From positions 1 to 64,000 of the IMG/VR virus record IMGVR_UViG_3300025030_000076: DNA of 64,000 nt. One strand, given 5' to 3'. The position numbers and the translations under genes are program-made. The DNA is from a virus. Below, one piece after another: positions 41,221 to 49,817 of this stretch (the first letter of the stretch is position 1; the number at the start of each line of letters is the position of its first letter). Below the pieces are notes generated by a model. The model did no database searches and was not told where the DNA came from. It worked only from the letters and a program-made list of their open reading frames with translations.

Positions 41221-42333
41221 TTATAAAAGTTTTGGGCTTTCCGGTTCTGCGCTCACGGCTTCCATCTGGAAATCATGGGCAAGCACAATCCTGGCGGCTT
41301 CGACTTTCTCGTTCAGGATGGATTTTTCAATCACATAATCGAGTTGCTCTTTGGTCAACTCGCCCATAAACTTCTCTTTGCCGCCTTTGACTTTGACGAC
41401 AACCTGCTTCGCTTCGTCGTAGGTCATGGGGTGCAAGTCGGTTTCGGGTGGAAAATCTTTATCCAAATCGCCAGTGATGTCCTCCGGCTCTGCCTGTGCA
41501 GACAGGTCTTGCGTCACCGGAATATCCTCTGCCTCCACGTCAATCGGCTCATCTGCCCTCAATGCTTCCCTGAGTTGCGGAGAGTGTTCGATGCCGCTCT
41601 TATCCGCCCAATTCAAAAGCGCACGCAGGACGGTTTTCATTTCCATCGTGGGGCGCTTCTTTGGGTCTTTCCAGTTTGGGTTTTTTATCTTCCCGTCGTC
41701 GTCTAAATAGTCTTTGACATAGTTCATGGCGTGTTCTTCGATCTCGACGCAGGACATATAGACGGACTTCTCAAACCCCTTCGTGGTCTTGTAGTAGCCA
41801 AGCCAGCCTATTACTTTCTTGCCCTGGTCGCGTCGCACAGTGACATTGCGGGAATATGCGGCGTTATAGGATTGCGGCTGACCCATAAATCCATTTTCCT
41901 CCTGTACCGCGTGCAGTCCGGTCAATGGGTTTTCAAACACCTGCTGGCCTTCATAGATCGGCGCAACGTTGATGATCCAGTACTTGTTCGTTCGCATAGC
42001 GAGGAAGTAAACCCCAAAATAATGAGGCTGAAATTGCGCTTCCTTGATCCACTTCGGGGTCTGCCCTTTCGGGGCAATGTTTCGATTGCGAGGGATAAGC
42101 CATGCCTGTTTTACGGCGGGGTCACAGGATAAACCGAGAGACGCGGCGCGCAAGGCGGCTCTATGAATGCTCTGCGGCGTGCATTGCATCAAGTCCTCTG
42201 TGGAGGACGCGGCAATGATTACGCTTTGCACATAAGGCGCGGCATCTTTTCCAAGCAGGTTGACAAAATCCTGGAAGTTGTCAGGCTGGCGGAGGTATTC
42301 GGTAACTGGATTTTTTACGATTGCATTTTGCAT
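41221..42333 (-). CDS. recT: RecT-family ssDNA annealing protein
   Basis: CTPQSI..AASLGLS..AWLIP..AQFQ..W..MEMKTVLR. Confidence 0.85.
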   Translation of the reverse strand: MQNAIVKNPVTEYLRQPDNFQDFVNLLGKDAAPYVQSVIIAASSTEDLMQCTPQSIHRAALRAASLGLSCDPAVKQAWLIPRNRNIAPKGQTPKWIKEAQFQPHYFGVYFLAMRTNKYWIINVAPIYEGQQVFENPLTGLHAVQEENGFMGQPQSYNAAYSRNVTVRRDQGKKVIGWLGYYKTTKGFEKSVYMSCVEIEEHAMNYVKDYLDDDGKIKNPNWKDPKKRPTMEMKTVLRALLNWADKSGIEHSPQLREALRADEPIDVEAEDIPVTQDLSAQAEPEDITGDLDKDFPPETDLHPMTYDEAKQVVVKVKGGKEKFMGELTKEQLDYVIEKSILNEKVEAARIVLAHDFQMEAVSAEPESPKLL

Positions 42334-43068
42334 GATGTTTATTCCTTTCTTTCTGTGATTAGGGTTCAATTTCAGGCACACTTGCGAACCACTCCGCCGA
42401 TCCAAAGACGGGAGGCGGTTGCGGCGCTCGTGCGGCGGCTCGCTCGGCTCGCTCCCGACTCAATGTGCGGGATAGGTGCGCCCATTCGCTCAGGTTCTCG
42501 TCGCAGTCGTCCGCTTCAAATGCGGCATGTGCGTAGAGTTCCAGGAATATCAACTCGAAATAATCGTTGTCGGTCATGATCGCACCGCTTTCAGCAATCG
42601 GCGCATTCCCTCTGTGTCGTTTGCCAGGATAGCGTCAAAAAACGGGAGGCGTTTTTCAAGTTTGGCACGCTGGGGGTCTGCGTAAATGTGCGCCTTGATC
42701 TGCTCGCGCTCCATCTCGAAGCGGGCGAGTGTCGCCTGATGAGTGGCAGCTTCTTTGGCCTGCCCCGCCTTGAGATAAACAGTTATCCAGCCGCGGAGCG
42801 TCTTGATCTCTCTGTCGAGAATGTCAAGCTGCTCCTGCGGCGTGATCTCGCGTACAGGAACCTGCGCGAGGGAGATACGTTCGATTGTTTTGGATTTGTA
42901 GGGATGATACATTCTTGCCTTTCCGCCCTTTCCCATTTTCCACGAGTTGTGGTAAGATGGAGAAGAGCCTAATCCCGGAGAAGGATGATTGCTCAGTTGC
43001 CTGCCCGTCATTCACGTGACGGGCTTTTTCTATTCTATCACCAACATGACGCTGGCGATGTGTTTTGG

Positions 43069-43284
43069 TTACGCTTCCCCTTCCGCCTCCTTATCTGATG
43101 GATAGTATATATTCATCCATAAATTAATTGTTTGGTGGCTAACCCCGATGATCGCCGCGGCCCGTCTCAGCGAGTAACCTTTCTTTAGCAGGCTGCGCGC
43201 CCGCTTTGCATATTCGCGGCGGGTCTGTTCATATTCATTTCCCAGCACGCGGCGGGAGTGGGGGGTGGGGTATTTTTTTTCCAT
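43069..43284 (-). CDS. HTH regulator (Cro-like)
   Basis: GYSLRRAAAIIGVSHQTINLW. Confidence 0.8.
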   Translation of the reverse strand: MEKKYPTPHSRRVLGNEYEQTRREYAKRARSLLKKGYSLRRAAAIIGVSHQTINLWMNIYYPSDKEAEGEA

Positions 43285-43290
43285 GTCCTG

Positions 43291-43403
43291 ATATTACTAC
43301 GCCTTGATTGTGTTGTCAAGTAAATTTACTGTCATTTTTGTAACTTCTTTATAAACCAGTTTAGTAAACGCCCTTGACAAATTCAATGTTCCTGCTTTAT
43401 AAT
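43291..43403. promoter_or_regulatory. Divergent sigma70 promoters
   Basis: Minus: TTGACA (43319-43314)-17-TAATAT; plus: TTGACA (43374)-18-TATAAT (43398). Confidence 0.8.
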
Positions 43404-43428
43404 CCTGGTATAGAAAAGGAAAACGCAC

Positions 43429-43695
43429 ATGAACAAATTCGAAGAATTGCATGGTAGTCAAACACAAACTATCGCGGCGCTGGAAGCGGAGAATGCGAAA
43501 CTGAGGGAGTTTGTCAGTAAATTTTCTGACAACTTCAGCGATTGTGATTACTGTAATGGCAAAGGCGTTTTTTCGGATGATATGATTGAGTGCCGCGTCT
43601 GTAACGGGACCGGAAAACACATAACCTCAATTGGTGTGATGTTCGTGGAATTACCTGAAGAAGCCCGCGCCCTTCTCGCCCAGGAGCCAGCATGA
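43429..43695 (+). CDS. Coiled-coil + CxxCxGxG Zn-finger protein
   Basis: CDYCNGKG...CRVCNGTG. Confidence 0.7.
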   Translation: MNKFEELHGSQTQTIAALEAENAKLREFVSKFSDNFSDCDYCNGKGVFSDDMIECRVCNGTGKHITSIGVMFVELPEEARALLAQEPA

Positions 43696-43833
43696 CCCGC
43701 CTCACCTTCGACCCTCCCTCCGAATCCCCGGACGGCGATCCCGTCTGCCGGATATGCGATCACGAGATGGAGTACAACCCACTCACCCGCGAGTGGGAAT
43801 GCGTCCAGGATCACGACGCGCTGGAAAACGAAG

Positions 43834-44028
43834 ATGAAATACCGACCTGATCTCACGGACTACCTGCCTTGCATCGAAGCACTTGCAGATAAATTGAATG
43901 AGGATGCGATCTACAAAATGAGCAGGACTGATGCGGTAAAAATCGCCCTGGAAAAGGCACTTGAGAAAGTCGTGCCTGATGTTGTAATAAACAAAAAGCG
44001 GAAAAGGTACATCAAGCTGGATTTTTGA
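43834..44028 (+). CDS. Small ribbon-helix-helix-like protein
   Basis: MSRTDAVKIALE. Confidence 0.5.
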   Translation: MKYRPDLTDYLPCIEALADKLNEDAIYKMSRTDAVKIALEKALEKVVPDVVINKKRKRYIKLDF

Positions 44029-44114
44029 AAATGAGTGCGACGATGTACACTCCGCTCATACCCTAGTTAGACCCCTGTCTTGCTGGCAGGGTATCACCCA
44101 AAAGGAGAAAAAAC

Positions 44115-44402
44115 ATGAGCGCAGCAAGTGATTTGATTGAACGAATGGAACGCGAAACAGGTCTGCGGATTGATTCTGATGACCCAAACAATATGGCAAT
44201 GGCTGGTTTATTCGGCGCAGTTGCCCGCATGATGGGCAAGTCAAGCCACGATGAGCGCGATGATGTTGTGGCTGGTCTCTTGGTCATGCACCAAATGACC
44301 CCAGAGTATCGCAATGAACAAGAGAGTAAACAAATGATTGCTTCTCTTTTGTCCAGTGGTCTCTCCCCTGATGATATTCGCAATATGTGGGGCGGGGTCT
44401 AA
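44115..44402 (+). CDS. Cassette 1 hypothetical protein
   Basis: AAGGAG RBS; stop TAA lies in the R'' box, the canonical cassette layout. Confidence 0.75.
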   Translation: MSAASDLIERMERETGLRIDSDDPNNMAMAGLFGAVARMMGKSSHDERDDVVAGLLVMHQMTPEYRNEQESKQMIASLLSSGLSPDDIRNMWGGV

Positions 44403-44487
44403 CAAACGCTTGCAGTGGACTTGGCGGTACGGTGTGTCTTTTTGCGAAGGTTACGAACCGCCAAGCCACTAAAGCGAACCGTTCGGC
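44397..44487 (+). repeat. attC site 1
   Basis: GTCTAAC..cttgcagtggacttggcgg..ccgccaagccactaaag..GTTCGGC. Confidence 0.85.
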
Positions 44488-44627
44488 GGCTACCTTGCCA
44501 GCCGAGAAGTGAGAAATAAATGGGTATTTATGAATGTAGTTGTTTGCCAGCAAATCTAAGCCCAAGCGGTGAATTTGAGTTGTGCGAAGTTTGCCGCCTG
44601 GAAGAAGAAAACGAAGATGATAACGCC

Positions 44628-44755
44628 GCCGAACAAAGCCTGCACCTGACGCTTGGGAGTCTGCGCCTAAAAAAGCAGTTTCCAAGCCGAAAGTTTTATC
44701 CACATCTCAAACCTTATCCAAGCCCACCAAGCGCAGGTAAAGCACACCGTTAGGT
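44628..44755 (+). repeat. attC site 2
   Basis: GCCGAAC..cctgcacctgacgcttgg..ccaagcgcaggtaaag..GTTAGGT. Confidence 0.85.
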
Positions 44756-44760
44756 GGCTT

Positions 44761-45387
44761 ATGGCTAAATTTGATACGAAGTTTGCACACGCAAGAGAAG
44801 ATTGGGAAACTCCCGATAGTATCTTCAAACCGTTGGAGGCTGAATTTGACATCGTGATTGATGTTTGTGCTTCCGAGCATAACAAGAAGTGTTCACTAAG
44901 ATATACCATTGAGGAGAATGGTCTTTTGCAAGATTGGTCACAGTGGCATGCGTGTTGGATGAACCCGCCATTTGGTCGGCAATCTGTGTGGGTCAAAAAG
45001 GCTTACACGGAAAGCCTGCGAGGAGCAACGGTTGTCTGTCTACTTCCTGCCCGCACTAATACTAATTGGTGGCACGACTTTTGCATGAAAGGCACGGTTC
45101 GCTTTTTGCGTGGTCGTCCCATCTTTGTCGGAGCCAAACATGGTTTACCCCAGCCGTTGGCTGCTGTGATGTTGAGCGCCAGTGTGCTCGCGGCCGCATT
45201 GGTCAGGGTCAGAATGTTTGTGGCGGGTGGGATGATTGCCGCCGCCGTGATGTGCATTGTCATATTCCAGCCACCTAACACATGCGTGCAGTCGGACGGG
45301 GCTTACTGTGCGTGCAAAGAAGGGTTATCCTTCACGGTGGCGAATGGCACAAATTATTGTCTTGCGTGCGGTCAGCCCCGCCGCTAA
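44761..45387 (+). CDS. Phage DNA N6-adenine methyltransferase (Dam family) in cassette 3
   Basis: DWETP, DVCAS, WMNPPF, LLPARTNT.WW, FLRGR. Confidence 0.88.
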   Translation: MAKFDTKFAHAREDWETPDSIFKPLEAEFDIVIDVCASEHNKKCSLRYTIEENGLLQDWSQWHACWMNPPFGRQSVWVKKAYTESLRGATVVCLLPARTNTNWWHDFCMKGTVRFLRGRPIFVGAKHGLPQPLAAVMLSASVLAAALVRVRMFVAGGMIAAAVMCIVIFQPPNTCVQSDGAYCACKEGLSFTVANGTNYCLACGQPRR

Positions 45388-45402
45388 CGCAAGCCGTTAG
45401 CT
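45273..45402 (+). repeat. attC site 3
   Basis: ACCTAAC..gcgtgcagtcggacggggc..gccccgccgctaacgc..GTTAGCT. Confidence 0.85.
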
Positions 45403-45425
45403 GGCACTTTGCAAAGGATGTAATT

Positions 45426-45590
45426 ATGAGTATTGTCAGACCGCACGGAAGCAGTACCAAGATTTTTCGTGAACTACGTAAAACAAGATGTATTTTTTGT
45501 GGGTTCGGCGTGAAACTTGTTGTCAGGAAAACTGGCAACAAAGTCGAGAAAGTATGTCCGAAGTGTGGCAGGAAGTTTCAGAGGTCATGA
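45426..45590 (+). CDS. Cassette Zn-ribbon protein
   Basis: AAGGA RBS; CIFC..CPKC. Confidence 0.6.
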   Translation: MSIVRPHGSSTKIFRELRKTRCIFCGFGVKLVVRKTGNKVEKVCPKCGRKFQRS

Positions 45591-45594
45591 AGCG

Positions 45595-45684
45595 GGCTAA
45601 CAAATGCGTGCAGGCGACATGGGTGGGCGGCGGTCAAAATCGGACAGTCATAGCCACCCATGCGCCTAACGCAAGCCGTTCGGC
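45595..45684 (+). repeat. attC site 4
   Basis: GGCTAAC..gcgtgcaggcgacatgggtgg..ccacccatgcgcctaacgc..GTTCGGC. Confidence 0.88.
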
Positions 45685-45713
45685 GGCTACCTTATAGCCA
45701 GAAGGAGCAAACA

Positions 45714-45983
45714 GTGAAAATTTTAGGTGATACTATCGTGTGTAAGATCATGCACTCTCAATACTGTTTTTCGTGTGGTCGCCATTTGGCAACTGCCAAA
45801 ACAACCAAAGCCACCGAAAAGATTGTTTTGAAAAATGGCGGCTCGATCCGTAAAGATGGTTTTTATCGTGCGTACTGCGCGTCCCATGTGCCGCCCAACA
45901 CGGCGTGCAGCGGATTGGCGGATGAATTATTACCCGGTATTGCGTTGCCCGAATGGATTTTGAGAAATCCCGCCAACCGCTAA
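45714..45983 (+). CDS. Cassette hypothetical protein, reads through attC5
   Basis: AAGGAG RBS, GTG start, stop in the L' box. Confidence 0.6.
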   Translation: MKILGDTIVCKIMHSQYCFSCGRHLATAKTTKATEKIVLKNGGSIRKDGFYRAYCASHVPPNTACSGLADELLPGIALPEWILRNPANR

Positions 45984-45998
45984 CGCAAACCGTTAGCC
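45893..45998 (+). repeat. attC site 5
   Basis: GCCCAAC..gcgtgcagcggattggcgg..ccgccaaccgctaacgc..GTTAGCC. Confidence 0.88.
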
Positions 45999-46140
45999 CG
46001 CTCTTTCGGGCAAGGAAAATCAATGAACAAGAAACGAGAACTAATATTTATCACAGTATGGCTGGCTGGAGTCATAGGTTTGGTTTTGGTTGTATTACAG
46101 CTTCGCCAAATTTGTCCGTGTTGGTGGCTACCATGAAGCG

Positions 46141-46265
46141 GTCTAACAATGCGTGCAGTTGACGGCGGGAAGGCTCCCGGCTGTACATGCAACGCCTACC
46201 AATTAGAGAACTTCGGTTGTAAATGTGGTGCGGCAACCCGCCGCAACTAACGCAAACCGTTGGTG
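46141..46265 (+). repeat. attC site 6
   Basis: GTCTAAC..gcgtgcagttgacggcggg..cccgccgcaactaacgc..GTTGGTG. Confidence 0.82.
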
Positions 46266-46290
46266 CGGACTTAGTTAGGAAAGGTAAAAT

Positions 46291-46524
46291 ATGTATCTAA
46301 AACTCATGAATGATTACGAGGAAGAATTGAGACTAGCAGGAAGAAAAATTAAGGTAAACGATCATTTTGCAAGGTTTGATTTTGCAAGTTGGCTAGATAG
46401 ACAAGCCGCCCAACAACCGCTTGCACAGCCGACTGGTTGCTGGGCGTGTGGCGATAAAGGTATCATCCGCGCCGATGGTATCGCTATCAACTGTTCGGTT
46501 TGCAATCCCGCAACCAGCCGCTAA
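46291..46524 (+). CDS. Cassette protein with C-terminal Zn-finger encoded inside attC7
   Basis: CWAC..CSVC within the attC loop. Confidence 0.65.
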   Translation: MYLKLMNDYEEELRLAGRKIKVNDHFARFDFASWLDRQAAQQPLAQPTGCWACGDKGIIRADGIAINCSVCNPATSR

Positions 46525-46538
46525 CGCAAGCCTTGGGC
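46408..46538 (+). repeat. attC site 7 (degenerate R')
   Basis: GCCCAAC..ctggttgc..gcaaccag ccgctaacgc..CTTGGGC. Confidence 0.7.
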
Positions 46539-46673
46539 GGAAGCCCTGCAAGGTAAACGTGAAAGAAAGTTTTTGTGAATGCAATCACCCCCAAAGGTTT
46601 CATGGTACGCACTTGTCTGATGATACTTATGATGGTGCTTGCGTGCGTCAAACCTGCAAATGCCGTAAATTCC

Positions 46674-46790
46674 GCCCAACAAAGCGTGGGCTTTGGGCGT
46701 GGGCTAATTATCGTATTGGTGAATTTGTGTGGTCTTGCCGAGCGTGGTTGGATGTATAAATCGCCAGCCAGTAATGCAAGACCATTGGAC
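46674..46790 (+). repeat. attC site 8 (decayed)
   Basis: GCCCAACaaagcgtg..gtaatgcaagaccATTGGAC. Confidence 0.45.
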
Positions 46791-46811
46791 AGTGCGCTGT
46801 AAGGAGTAGAA

Positions 46812-47075
46812 ATGAACGTTGATTTAGAAAAAGAGATCGACACTGTTGCGGAATTCTGCTGTGACAATCCTAACTATAATGAGTTGCGCGAAGAAATTGC
46901 AACTCTTGTCCGTAAATATCATCAAATTGCTGGAGACTTGGCGTTGGAGGTTTGGAGATTGAGCCGCCCAACTACGGGTGCAGTTGACTCGGCGGAGATT
47001 CCCGAAGTTTTCAACCTGCAACCAAAAGTGATTGCAAAAGGTCGTATTGTGTTCGATGACCCGCCGAGCAACTAA
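46812..47075 (+). CDS. Cassette hypothetical protein, reads through attC9
   Basis: AAGGAG RBS. Confidence 0.65.
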   Translation: MNVDLEKEIDTVAEFCCDNPNYNELREEIATLVRKYHQIAGDLALEVWRLSRPTTGAVDSAEIPEVFNLQPKVIAKGRIVFDDPPSN

Positions 47076-47084
47076 TCGTTAGCT
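46966..47084 (+). repeat. attC site 9
   Basis: GCCCAAC..gtgcagttgactcggcgg..ccgccgagcaactaa..GTTAGCT. Confidence 0.75.
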
Positions 47085-47108
47085 GGCTCTTCAAGAAAGA
47101 AGGTAATC

Positions 47109-47321
47109 ATGGAAAAATGTGATCGTTGTGGTAAAAAAGTAAAGGTGTATCCAACTCATTATTCGGCATGGAATGAACTTTGCCTGCCGTGTATCAAACT
47201 CATGGGGCTTGGTTTGCCTGAAATGCAACCAGCTAACAAAAGCGTGGAGCCGACTTGTCCAAACTGCGGCGAACCATTGCATTATCACCCTACCGCCGAC
47301 TGCAAAGTAGCCCGCTCTTGA
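47109..47321 (+). CDS. Cassette Zn-finger protein spanning decayed attC10 (47231-47313)
   Basis: CDRC, CLPC, CPNC. Confidence 0.6.
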   Translation: MEKCDRCGKKVKVYPTHYSAWNELCLPCIKLMGLGLPEMQPANKSVEPTCPNCGEPLHYHPTADCKVARS

Positions 47322-47332
47322 AAGGATAGGTT

Positions 47333-47545
47333 ATGAACTATACAAAAGCGAATCAGGCTCTTGCTAATGAGTTCGGCGCAGGTCAGGTCGAAGTCCATAA
47401 GGCAAAGAAGGGTGATCCGTGGGAATACACACTCTGGTTCTTGGATGATGATCCTGCGCCTGGCGTAATCGAGAAGGCTAAGAAAATCGTTGGTCGCTTC
47501 GAGCCGTCTCGGTGGTTCGATAAGTTGAAATTCCATTCCGAGTAG
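47333..47545 (+). CDS. Cassette hypothetical protein
   Basis: RBS; ends just before an R'' box. Confidence 0.65.
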   Translation: MNYTKANQALANEFGAGQVEVHKAKKGDPWEYTLWFLDDDPAPGVIEKAKKIVGRFEPSRWFDKLKFHSE

Positions 47546-47547
47546 CG

Positions 47548-47675
47548 GGCTAACACGGGCTTGCACAGGGACGGCTTGCCAGCCGAACATCGCGTGCAGT
47601 GGACTTTGGCTACTGTGTGGCAAATTTTTTGTGGCTCTATATCGCCGCCAAAGCCACTAACGCAAACCGTTGGGC
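47548..47675 (+). repeat. attC site 11 (truncated left half at 47548 plus full site from 47582)
   Basis: GGCTAAC.., then GCCGAAC..gcgtgcagtggactttggc..gccaaagccactaacgc..GTTGGGC. Confidence 0.8.
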
Positions 47676-47702
47676 GGACTAGCTCAACAGAAAGATTTTG
47701 AA

Positions 47703-47927
47703 ATGAATTGTCAATATTGCAAACATTCGATAGACGAGCATGATAGTGGGGGATGTCATCGTAAAATTGACGGCGGTATCTGCGATTGTAATCATTCCCC
47801 AAACTATATCGCCGCCCAACAAATGCGTGCAGGCGACTTGGCTACTGGTTGCCCGTTCTGCGGTGTCTCCGCCGAAGATATTGCATTGCTCAATGAATCG
47901 CTTGCGCGTGAAACGCCAAGCGTCTAA
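47703..47927 (+). CDS. Cassette Cys/His-rich protein, reads through attC12
   Basis: CQYCKH..CDC, CPFC. Confidence 0.6.
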   Translation: MNCQYCKHSIDEHDSGGCHRKIDGGICDCNHSPNYIAAQQMRAGDLATGCPFCGVSAEDIALLNESLARETPSV

Positions 47928-47943
47928 CCCAAGTCCGTTGGGC
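47814..47943 (+). repeat. attC site 12
   Basis: GCCCAAC..gcgtgcaggcgacttggc..gccaagcgtctaac..GTTGGGC. Confidence 0.82.
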
Positions 47944-48074
47944 GGACTACCCGACTTTGAAAGGAAAATAAAATGTCAGACGAGAAAAAACAAGTAGTAA
48001 TTCACAGGGATGGCTCTGTGACCGAGCAAAGAAGTAATGATCTTCCAATTGTTTTGCTGCCATCAAAGCAAACC

Positions 48075-48186
48075 GCCCAACACGGCGTGGAGCCGACTGT
48101 TTGTCCTAAGTGCGGTCACGCTGTTGGTGGTCATAATGCACTTTGTCCAATTGGTAATTAGTGGCGGCTCACGCGCCCCGTTGGGC
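48075..48186 (+). repeat. attC site 13 (overlapped by ORF 47973-48161)
   Basis: GCCCAAC..gcgtggagccgac..gcggctcacgc..GTTGGGC. Confidence 0.8.
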
Positions 48187-48327
48187 GGACGCTCCGCCAG
48201 GAAGTGAGGAAGCATGAAAATTTGTGATGCTTGCGGAAAAGCATGTTATAGTTTTGCAACTTACAAAATATGTAGGCATATTGTTTGTAGCCGTCACGAA
48301 TATCCAGAAAGTTGCCCTGTGTGCGCC

Positions 48328-48451
48328 GCCCAACACGGCGTGCAGCGGACGACTGATGACGTCCGCGAAAATGTTGGTGTTTCTGAAAATGGTGAACTGC
48401 ATTCAGTAATGCGTGGAACAACCCGCCGCCGCTAACGCAAGTCCGTTGGGC
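48328..48451 (+). repeat. attC site 14 (overlapped by ORF 48214-48435)
   Basis: GCCCAAC..gcgtgcagcggac..gccgctaacgc..GTTGGGC. Confidence 0.82.
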
Positions 48452-48457
48452 TCCAAT

Positions 48458-48480
48458 AGCCCCCACTTAGGGGGCTTTGT
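48458..48480 (+). terminator. Terminator closing the cassette array
   Basis: AGCCCCC-actta-GGGGGCT-TTGT. Confidence 0.7.
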
Positions 48481-48555
48481 GTTATAATCAGAACGAATGT
48501 GCTCCCGCGTGATGGAACACCGGGAGCGTGATCTCAGCACAACGGAGGTGCTTCG

Positions 48556-49044
48556 ATGGAAGAGATTTTAACACGCTTTTGTCCAAGGTGCGGGGTAGAG
48601 CATAAATTATCGGAATTCAAAAGAGAACCCAAGCCAGGTAGATACCCAGGGTCATGCGTTTACAGCGGACGAGATGCGCGTATTTCTAAACCACCTAAAA
48701 CAAAAACAACAAAACCGCCTCCCGTTTATCTAGACGCCAGTTATCTTCCAAAAAAGAGGGTGGTAGGGTTATTTCCGCGTATTCAGACAATATTTTCCCA
48801 TTCTTACCGCGCTCGCGCCAACGGCAACAATGGGAAAATCATATATCAGGAATGGGAGGATCTGAAAGAAAAATATAACAATACCTGTCTGTGTTGTGGC
48901 AGACGATCTCCTGAAGTCGAAATAACTCTTGACCACGTACTCCCCTTGAGTATGGGGGGTAGGAATACTATTGAGAACGCCCAGCCGCTTTGTCTTTCTT
49001 GTAACTGCAAGAAAAGCACGAAATACATTGATTATCGCCCCTAA
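48556..49044 (+). CDS. HNH endonuclease (McrA-like)
   Basis: CLCC..TLDHVLPLSMGG.N..N.QPLCLSCNCKK. Confidence 0.9.
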   Translation: MEEILTRFCPRCGVEHKLSEFKREPKPGRYPGSCVYSGRDARISKPPKTKTTKPPPVYLDASYLPKKRVVGLFPRIQTIFSHSYRARANGNNGKIIYQEWEDLKEKYNNTCLCCGRRSPEVEITLDHVLPLSMGGRNTIENAQPLCLSCNCKKSTKYIDYRP

Positions 49045-49071
49045 ATCTAATTCGATGCCTATTGAATTAGA

Positions 49072-49100
49072 TTGACACGCGTAGCCGAAAGTGCTACACT
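49072..49100 (+). promoter_or_regulatory. Sigma70 promoter
   Basis: TTGACA-17-TACACT. Confidence 0.65.
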
Positions 49101-49274
49101 TTAGGAGGTAGTGGCCTCTTCCTTTAGACCGCCGCCACCCGAATACAGCAGAGAAACCCTGCCCGACAGGAAACTAAAAGAGAAATCGCCGCCAGCGTCG
49201 CCCTTTGCTAGTTTCTGCAACCCCCGCTTCCATTTCCCAAGTCGAAGCGGGAGTGTTGTTTTTATGGGGGAGTG

Positions 49275-49817
49275 CTATCTTACAAACACCTGCACCCAGC
49301 CCAGCACGTTCGTCGGATCTGTCACCCAGGTCGGCGTTACCCACTTGATCTCGAAATAATCCCCGGCCACTACCGCAATAGAGAGCGCCGTGTTTTGCAC
49401 GTGGAACGGCGACGCGTTCAAAGCCACGGCGCTTGAGATGGTTGTATCGGTCGTATTATTCAGGCGGAATGAGATTGTGCTTGTCTCACTCGTCCCGGTC
49501 GTGGCAACCAAAAAAACATCAGCGGCGACTACCGTCCCGGCGCGCATGACGTAAAGCCGCTGTATGGCTGCGGTTGTCCCAAGCGCTACATGCGGGAACG
49601 CGCCGAAGTAATAAGTCGTTGCATCAGCAGGATTGACGGAGGCGAAGCCCGCCGGGATTGCATAGCATCCCGCAACGGTGCGAGTATAGGTGGCGATGGA
49701 GGACACGAGCGCGACTTGGTTGCCCGAAATAGGGAATACTTCCGTTCCAACCAGCGTTGTCTTTTCGCCTGAGGGCGCGCCTGTGGTTGTGTTGGTGCTT
49801 ATATATCTGTTTGTCAT
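49275..49817 (-). CDS. Minor tail/fibre-type protein
   Basis: Thr/Ala/Val beta-rich, last gene of the tail operon. Confidence 0.6.
   Translation of the reverse strand: MTNRYISTNTTTGAPSGEKTTLVGTEVFPISGNQVALVSSIATYTRTVAGCYAIPAGFASVNPADATTYYFGAFPHVALGTTAAIQRLYVMRAGTVVAADVFLVATTGTSETSTISFRLNNTTDTTISSAVALNASPFHVQNTALSIAVVAGDYFEIKWVTPTWVTDPTNVLGWVQVFVR

Follow-up and report, generated by a model that had tools for sequence, protein, structure and literature searches.

Putative protein-coding attC loops in an integrase-less integron cassette array of a phage early operon

The attC site of an integron cassette is usually treated as non-coding structural DNA, and annotation rules permit a gene to overlap it by a few bases. 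Then, could an attC site also encode a selected part of a protein? The record IMGVR_UViG_3300025030_000076 of IMG/VR, a virus record with a total length of 80,305 bp, raises this question. Its first 64 kb (positions 1 to 64,000) constitute the window analysed here, to which all coordinates refer unless another record is named. Between 44066 and 48451 the window holds an array of small cassettes with 14 attC repeats. An earlier note, which was made by a model from the letters alone, had claimed that about ten open reading frames (ORFs) of the array run into the attC sites, that many of them stop there, and that the hairpin loops have been filled with phage coding sequence for Zn-finger tails. 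Based on the analysis of this array and of its relatives in viral and bacterial sequences, we consider it likely that it is an integrase-less integron array in a phage early operon, in which the arms of attC serve as DNA elements and the loops as coding tails under selection.

The array and its attC sites

The array, its sites and the ORFs that reach them are listed below. Each site runs in the order R'', L'', variable loop, L', R'.

44066..48451, + strand: cassette array, a cluster of attC sites lacking an integron integrase (CALIN), with 12 intact and 2 decayed attC sites in one orientation; it starts at G|TTAGACCCC
44397..44487, + strand: attC a0, 91 nt, short class; ORF 44115-44402 ends at the TAA of R''
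44628..44755, + strand: attC a1, 128 nt, host-type loop; ORF 44520-44753 passes through it and its stop is the TAG of R'
45273..45402, + strand: attC a2, 130 nt; ORF 44761-45387 (Dam methyltransferase) stops at the L' TAA and has as its tail the loop-encoded YCACKEGLSFTVANGTNYCLACG
45595..45684, + strand: attC a3, 90 nt, short class; ORF 45426-45590 ends before R''
45604-45669, + strand: mini-ORF in a3, 21 codons, from an ATG in the spacer to the L' TAA
45893..45998, + strand: attC a4, 106 nt; ORF 45714-45983 has its tail, without Cys, encoded here and stops at the L' TAA
46141..46265, + strand: attC a5, 125 nt; the upstream ORF 46023-46136 ends before R''
46149-46250, + strand: mini-ORF in the a5 loop, 33 aa, with CTC..CKC, from an ATG in the spacer to the L' TAA
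46408..46538, + strand: attC a6, 131 nt; ORF 46291-46524 stops at the L' TAA, and its tail CWACGDKGIIRADGIAINCSVCN is encoded in the loop
46674..46791, + strand: decayed attC a7, 5' half intact and 3' half diverged (TAATGCAAGACCATTGGAC); ORF 46559-46759 ends inside it
46966..47084, + strand: attC a8, 119 nt; ORF 46812-47075 takes its tail from it and stops at the L' TAA
47231..47314, + strand: decayed attC a9, part of its 3' half deleted; it is crossed by ORF 47109-47321 (CPNCGEPLHYHPTADC), and the cassette is fused to the next one
47548..47675, + strand: attC a10, a composite whose 5' half is present twice (47548 and 47582); ORF 47333-47545 ends before R''
47814..47943, + strand: attC a11, 130 nt; the tail ..GCPFCGVSAEDIALLNESL.. 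of ORF 47703-47927 is encoded in it, with the L' TAA as stop
48075..48186, + strand: attC a12, 112 nt, L' without TAA; it encodes the tail CPKCGHAVGGHNALC of ORF 47973-48161, whose stop is a TAG just before L'
48328..48451, + strand: attC a13, 124 nt; it encodes the tail of ORF 48214-48435, whose stop is the L' TAA

The 14 repeats all lie on the + strand between 44397 and 48451. Both core boxes, R'' (RYYYAAC) and R' (GTTRRRY), are present in 12 of them; a6 has CTTGGGC, and some R' boxes are off at one position. The decayed a7 and a9 have kept the 5' half, the 3' half being diverged or partly deleted. The L boxes are conserved across the repeats (L'' GCGTGCA-NNNGAC and L' NNCTAACGCAARCC), and the sites measure 90-131 nt, attC sites being known from about 57 to 141 nt. 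When the bottom strands were folded as single-stranded DNA, they gave imperfect hairpins in which the '' side has bulged bases and the central part varies. In a0, a2, a3, a5, a6 and a10b the L boxes form a stem whose 3' side has two bulges, of 1 nt and 2 nt, and the folds of a11 and a12 pair the R boxes instead, with the L region loose. The fold z-score is -2 or lower in 9 of the 14 sites, the lowest being -3.9, and the stem beside the L boxes varies in sequence from site to site with its complementarity kept.

In addition, the R'' flank of a site pairs with the R' flank of the previous site and not with that of its own R', which is the prediction for a circular cassette closed at G|TT. The partner is the previous R' in 39 cases and the own R' in 9 cases for viral arrays (p = 3e-6), and in 107 versus 8 cases for arrays from metagenome-assembled genomes (MAGs). 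The junction flanks in the window are GTTCGGCGG for a1, GTTAGGTGGC for a2, GTTAGCTGG for a9 and GTTAGACCCC, at 44066, for a0; that is, the very start of the array, G|TTAGACCCC, is complementary to the R'' flank of the first attC. Judged by their sequence, the repeats are true integron attC sites. A short degenerate attC-like remnant (..AAAATGAGTGCGAC..CGCTCATACCCTAGTTAG) was also noticed at 44029-44072, upstream of the first junction, and the ORF 43834-44028 may be an older, fixed cassette.

No tyrosine recombinase was found anywhere in the 80,305-bp record, and the TIGR02249 profile gives no candidate in it; therefore, the array is a CALIN. It has more than the two same-orientation attC sites that define this class, with no intI nearby; it lacks the intI, attI and Pc of a complete integron and is fed by a phage early promoter. 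Note that the sites were detected with our own nhmmer half-site models, in place of the covariance model of IntegronFinder or HattCI; a MAFFT alignment of whole sites put the R'' boxes in two registers. Rfam, which has no attC model, gave no match in 43000-49300. Some metagenome contigs leave the window right after the GTT of a4, or a few bases past the R' core of a2 and a10. They were considered as evidence of cassette excision and rejected, since the sides of the joints are shorter than 30 nt and the source may be other attC-bearing organisms.

Reading frames across the attC sites

The ten ORFs of the earlier note are all present and run past R'' and L'' into attC, 86-126 nt of which are thereby coding. 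A stop exactly at the L' TAA is found in six of them (44761-45387, 45714-45983, 46291-46524, 46812-47075, 47703-47927 and 48214-48435); the other four stop at the R' TAG (44520-44753), at the TAG just before L' (47973-48161) or in a decayed attC (46559-46759 and 47109-47321). Four more ORFs (44115-44402, 45426-45590, 46023-46136 and 47333-47545) stop before or at R'', and all four have YTAAC as R''. The Cys motifs CAC..CLAC, CWAC..CSVC, CPNC, CPFC and CPKC, as well as the mini-ORF 46149-46250 inside its own attC (a5 here), are there as described. Every cassette ORF has a Shine-Dalgarno-like motif of its own, as read from the sequence. If the tails are counted, the untranslated gap between ORFs is no more than 52 nt at 10 of the 13 junctions.

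The ORFs enter R'' in all three frames (..PPN.., ..AAQ.. and ..RPT..), and therefore the arms are conserved as DNA, not as peptide. Among the seven cases that have an L' TAA, six ORFs are in the frame that ends on it, as set by the loop length (p of about 0.007 by hand calculation). A complete CxC/CxxC..CxxC pair is encoded in each of the a2, a5 and a6 loops. Within the window, the ORF frame holds 7 Cys pairs in 388 amino acids (aa), compared with 3 in 1200 aa of the other forward frames, two of the three being in the mini-ORF frame.

The same frame was then considered in this attC family beyond the window, in 62 long viral sites. Stop codons are absent from the L'-TAA frame at 48 of the 62 sites, compared with 28 open ones among 124 other frames (Fisher 6.5e-13), and the L'-TAA frame encodes 2.22 Cys pairs per 100 aa versus 0.28 in the others, an 8-fold difference. 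For the a6 loop (CWAC..CSVC), the ratio of nonsynonymous to synonymous substitution rates (dN/dS) against the loci L119, L121 and L122 is 0.08-0.13 in its frame and at least 1 in the other two frames. Most differences between this loop and its homologues in four metagenome loci are synonymous, e.g., CGC to AGA, ATC to ATT or ATA, and TGT to TGC. Four further viral loop pairs, when pooled, have a ratio of nonsynonymous to synonymous proportions (pN/pS) of 0.33 in frame versus 1.2 and 2.5 in the others. These values show purifying selection on the loop in the L'-TAA frame only. The claim that the loops are coding sequence is thus borne out by the openness and the Cys enrichment of one particular frame, by a dN/dS of about 0.1 confined to it, and by tails that are conserved on unrelated heads, as described below; both the dN/dS and the Cys counts depart from what unconstrained loops were expected to give.

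The comparison with host chromosomal loops, which the earlier note had proposed, gave the contrast expected from coding phage loops. For attC sites of the same family in Anaerolineae MAGs, the L'-TAA frame is open in 128 of 213 sites and the other frames in 234 of 426, without any preference. Cys pairs are rare in the MAG loops, and 679 loop pairs have pN/pS values of 1.05, 0.88 and 0.67. Of the cassette ORFs, 47 of 89 in viral arrays versus 16 of 177 in MAG arrays end at the L' stop, and 14 of 89 versus 116 of 177 (66%) end before or at R'' (p of about 1e-14). Phage loops are very diverse and MAG loops homogeneous (4 versus 679 similar pairs). A loss of loop pairing was tried as a discriminator between phage and MAG sites and rejected, the values being nearly equal (-0.184 versus -0.203 kcal/nt; central pairing 0.52 versus 0.50).

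Could the read-through be accidental? That is, the R'' TAA may have been lost (CCCAAC for CTAAC), and the ORFs may have drifted into stop-poor, GC-rich hairpins, yielding meaningless tails. Several non-ORF frames are indeed also open across individual attC sites of the window. The tail of ORF 44520-44753 (c1) through a1 resembles a host-type non-coding loop, and the a1 loop is apparently non-coding and simply read through. The tail of ORF 44761-45387 (c2) would fit as well, since the homology search gave no homologue for its extension and tail (residues 125-208). However, drift would explain neither the preferred open frame with its 8-fold enriched Cys pairs, nor a dN/dS near 0.1 in the predicted frame only, nor tails conserved as protein on unrelated heads. 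Moreover, sites with CTAAC as R'' are read through too, in the LT frame. Consequently, we give this explanation a probability close to negligible.

As for the encoded proteins, the Dam methyltransferase domain (PF05869) of c2 scores 100.7 bits versus a cut-off of 28.1 over residues 10-127 and matches phrog_111 (5.6e-45). Between the end of the domain, near residue 131, and the Cys tail encoded by attC lies a hydrophobic stretch of about 45 aa (LAAVMLSASVLAAALVRVRMFVAGGMIAAAVMCIVIF). The remaining cassette ORFs, of 37-95 aa, gave no significant family match. The zinc-ribbon-like tails, namely those of c2, the a5 mini-ORF and ORF 46291-46524 (c6), have two Cys knuckles (CxxC or CxC) 10-17 residues apart, and all four Cys are invariant in the homologues of the zinc-ribbon-like tail.

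Several points speak against the reading of the loops as selected coding tails, or limit its reach. The Cys motifs named in the earlier note stand, yet its term Zn-finger is a prediction: c6 has no Pfam family at E <= 0.1, its AlphaFold2 model is poor (mean predicted local distance difference test score of 65) and unusable for a fold search, and the tail of ORF 47703-47927 (c11) has a single CxxC. Zinc binding by the tails is suggested by their motifs only. The formal dN/dS values come from one loop family and four pooled pairs, with few sequences; the viral contigs are predicted as such in IMG/VR, and prophages may be present in the MAG set. None of the sequencing runs listed for the stretch is RNA; the phage occurs in groundwater and sediment samples. 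At the junctions a0, a3 and a10, 117-157 nt of untranslated hairpin are kept, so the melting of hairpins by ribosomes is not needed everywhere. The a5 loop encodes a separate mini-ORF behind a stop codon, unfused to the upstream ORF, and in L119/L120 the upstream ORF and the a6-type loop are in different frames. With two conserved Zn-type loop frames unfused, fusion is therefore not obligatory; it is frequent and selected, but not universal, as is expected if recombination at the arms ignores the frame and selection later sorts the products.

Heads, tails and the phage early operon

The part of a cassette protein encoded before R'' is called the head here, and the attC-encoded part the tail. 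For c6 (46291-46524), the protein P0002 has the same head with another tail after ..DRQAAQ, and the c6 tail, CWACG..GIIRADGIAINC..CNPA, is found on unrelated heads in P0003, P0004 and L121. For c11 (47703-47927), another tail follows the same Cys-rich head in P0006, and in P0014 the head belongs to a 135-aa protein without an attC tail. The c11 tail, GCPFCGVSAEDI..L, occurs on five unrelated heads (P0007, P0015, P0016, P0018 and P0019), joined via R'' in different frames, and is 40-88% identical across at least six heads. Similarly, P0021 has the head of ORF 48214-48435 (c13) with another tail after ..CAAQ. The locus L119 is the array end of a related phage with the same downstream 180-aa tail gene, and it shares with the window array only the attC-plus-loop segments of a6 (91%) and a8 (94% at the nucleotide level), the a8 tail being on a different head. 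This homology extends from R'' into L', as far as the stop or nearly so, and both flanks are unrelated. In L122, the a6 module forms the C-terminal end of an 83-aa protein whose ordinary gene, without attC half-sites, shares an ATGA overlap with the next gene. These comparisons show that heads and tails reassort, with the breakpoint in R'' or the spacer.

Two further observations concern these proteins and sites. c6 is encoded in roughly 50 contigs. L119 carries an unusually long attC at 1854-2060 (196 nt from AAC to GTT) with a tail of about 55 aa and several Cys knuckles (CSTCG..C..C..CTEC); given its second internal 5' half, it is probably a fusion of two sites.

It might be suggested that only the act of translation matters, through hairpin melting, a stop near the next ribosome-binding site and translational coupling, and that the tail peptides are functionless. 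The published short ORFs in attC and the translation-dependent polarity agree with this suggestion, as do the many tails without Cys and of low-complexity look and the mini-ORFs of a3 and a5, which span the distance from the spacer ATG to the L' TAA. However, the purifying selection acts on the amino-acid sequence, the recurring CxxC..CxxC patterns have a conserved spacing, one tail is maintained on six heads or more, and the a6 module is also present in an ordinary gene without attC arms. Translation for its own sake is thus an improbable explanation of the tails.

The armless gene of L122 bears on another question, namely whether the loops were filled with phage sequence, as the earlier note had put it. 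The loops are coding, and the module without arms would fit the filling of loops and the decay of genes out of cassettes alike; none of the observations bears on the making of cassettes, which the note had also brought up. A stronger form of the idea is cassette birth, in which phage genes gain attC arms round their 3' ends, coding loops are young, and the non-coding chromosomal loops are their decayed descendants. The zinc-ribbon-like module of L122, the c11 head in P0014 and the contrast between diverse phage loops and homogeneous MAG loops could be cited for it. However, the data fit both directions, as L122 could equally well be a decayed cassette; no mechanism that adds arms was seen, and homogeneous chromosomal attC sites are typical of sedentary integrons, for which a phage origin is unneeded. 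We therefore regard cassette birth as very doubtful.

The features of the surroundings that matter for the expression and the recombination of the array are as follows.

43374..43403, + strand: sigma-70 consensus promoter, TTGACA-18-TATAAT (12/12), at the head of the rightward early operon that holds the array
48458..48476, + strand: terminator-like hairpin and T-run, immediately 3' of the last attC
41221..42405, - strand: gene for a RecT-family single-strand annealing protein, a candidate agent for recombination between the conserved attC arms

The leftward genes include this RecT-family gene, 2 kb from the array, and 3' of the array there are an HNH endonuclease gene and then tail genes. L119 lacks the HNH endonuclease gene (48556-49044) that separates the array terminator from the tail genes in the window, and the homologous 180-aa tail gene of L119 follows its array almost immediately. 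One possibility is that the HNH gene is a mobile insertion. The early non-cassette genes just upstream of the array (43429-43850) also encode tiny Cys-rich proteins, one of which has DnaJ-type CxxCxGxG repeats (PF00684, 29 bits, below the cut-off). Therefore, Zn-knuckle proteins are general in this early operon. Among viral contigs, a query with RecT gave one distant locus related to this one, and a query with c6 gave none. It should be noted that positions 1-26300 of the record match 54808-80305 at 72-96% identity, so that the record amounts to about 1.45 genomes and the phage unit is about 54.8 kb. The assembly joins two related phage strains head to tail, a chimeric concatemer that the IMG/VR label 'linear, 100% complete' hides.

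How such an array could work may be outlined as follows. In the reading that we consider likely, the arms (R''-L'' and L'-R') are the elements for recombination and structure, read in whichever frame a gene enters them. The variable loop of about 60-75 nt is the coding segment for the last 25-35 residues, commonly a CxxC..CxxC zinc-ribbon-like module, and the L' TAA at which translation stops lies 10-13 nt ahead of the G|TT crossover. A single early transcript would cover the array, with its start at the 43374 promoter and its end at the 48458 terminator. Ribosomes that cross the hairpins may keep them melted, which would reduce polarity, leave the next ribosome-binding site accessible and allow the downstream cassettes to be expressed; such melting agrees with the reports on short ORFs in attC (PMC8876359) and on translation-dependent polarity (PMC11511950). 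The coding use of the loop could also save about 100 nt per cassette in the 240-650 bp cassettes of a packed phage genome. The zinc-ribbon-like module may be favoured since few other autonomous folds are small enough for about 25 codons. Finally, the conserved arms would let recombination at R'' move heads onto other tails, and selection would keep the in-frame products.

Origin of the attC family and comparison with known systems

With a 19-mer of the L'-R' consensus, the bacterial genome matches are almost all in Anaerolineales or other Chloroflexota, including the isolate Ornatilinea apprima, and the matched loci have 236 sites of this attC family. A 15-mer scan of IMG/VR extended the family to about 45 viral contigs; at least two sites are present in 30 of them, and as many as seven in one. 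The family being that of Anaerolineae integrons, the phage host is probably an Anaerolineae bacterium that carries integrons of this type. Short contigs binned to MAGs of Saccharibacteria, Anderseniibacteriota and other non-Chloroflexota were also seen to carry arrays of the family, such as L187, a phage-type array with coding loops, and L170 with host-type repeats. These and similar contigs are probably mis-binned phage or Chloroflexota DNA.

Among the viral arrays, L124 (IMGVR_UViG_3300009285_001180) encodes at 859-1908 an integron-integrase-like protein of 349 aa, which lies inside the array in the same orientation as the cassettes and scores 258 bits with TIGR02249 (cut-off 265) versus 81 bits with XerC. 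Another viral record has a C-terminal fragment of an IntI-like gene beside its array. In L124, read-through ORF ends of the attC type were observed both upstream and downstream of the integrase-like gene.

These genes bear on a further explanation, in which the phage elements descend from attC sites, are no longer integrase substrates and serve as linkers through which RecT homologous recombination shuffles modules. The record has a RecT gene 2 kb away and no integrase, the arms share up to 26 identical nt between sites, and the head-tail breakpoints lie at R'' and not at the canonical R' crossover. However, the G|TT junction signature persists in viral arrays (39 versus 9), some of these arrays encode an IntI-like gene or its remnant, and published phage attC sites are active with IntI1 (PMC9892861). 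Taken as exclusive, this explanation is rather unlikely; it overlaps with the integrase-less array of coding loops that we prefer, instead of excluding it. In fact, the crossover at R'' could take place through an integrase on the folded top strand (AA|C) or through RecT annealing over up to 26 nt of identity, and the data fit both.

Tentatively, one may go further, with a reading that is less likely than not. The attC site may have been turned, in Anaerolineae phages, into a device for 'exon shuffling' at the DNA level, with the arms as joints and the loops as tail exons. Recombination at R'' together with the canonical one at R' would assort heads and Cys-rich tails independently, giving combinatorial libraries of tiny early proteins, and some phages would carry their own integrase in the array.

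If a variable attC loop can carry a selected protein module, the coding capacity of cassettes is wider than assumed and the tolerance of a recombination site becomes visible. Tools that assume an overlap of a few bases would truncate such proteins or miss them. The same attC family is coding in phages and non-coding in host-type arrays, which offers a natural contrast for the constraints from translation, hairpin and recombination. The reassortment at R'' points to a kind of domain shuffling that is undescribed for integrons. Phage CALINs, stops that overlap attC and short ORFs in attC are already known; we found in the literature no description of attC loops that encode selected protein modules, of the contrast between phage and host, or of head-tail reassortment at R''. 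The protein modules encoded in attC loops thus appear to be new. With about 45 viral contigs found by one 15-mer scan, phage CALINs may be common.

Among known systems, the promoter-early stem-loop (PeSL) cassettes or 'boundary sequences' are short conserved repeats on either side of small early genes, to which modular shuffling in the hyperplastic regions of phages has been attributed. These repeats are regulatory or linker sequences, not integron attC sites, and are not known to be translated as protein tails. The arrays of Anaerolineae genomes are similar to the window array in the R''/L''/L'/R' consensus (..AACANNGCGTGCA..TAACGCAARCCGTT..), the size class of about 118 nt and the junction signature. 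However, they differ in their homogeneous loops, the missing frame preference, a pN/pS of about 1 and the 66% of ORFs that end before or at R''.

In ordinary integron cassettes, the stop commonly overlaps the start of attC by a few bases, and the ACID rules allow an overlap of no more than 15 bp (PMC2674596). Short ORFs in attC are also known: one inside attC relieves the stem-loop barrier by termination-reinitiation (PMC8876359). Untranslated stretches lower the expression of downstream cassettes, and translation reduces polar effects (PMC11511950). Unlike in ordinary cassettes, 86-126 nt of attC are coding here, the loop is a conserved protein module, and the stop lies in L' and not in R''. 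A likeness is also seen to the CALINs of virulent and temperate phages (Qi et al., 2023; PMC9892861), with methyltransferase cargo and attC sites that are functional with IntI1. The window array resembles them in having no intI, a single orientation and a DNA methyltransferase as cargo. It differs from them in its 14 sites within 4.4 kb, its very small cassettes (240-650 bp) and its loops, most of which appear to be coding and selected; and beyond those CALINs, its attC family could be traced to Anaerolineae and to about 45 further viral contigs.

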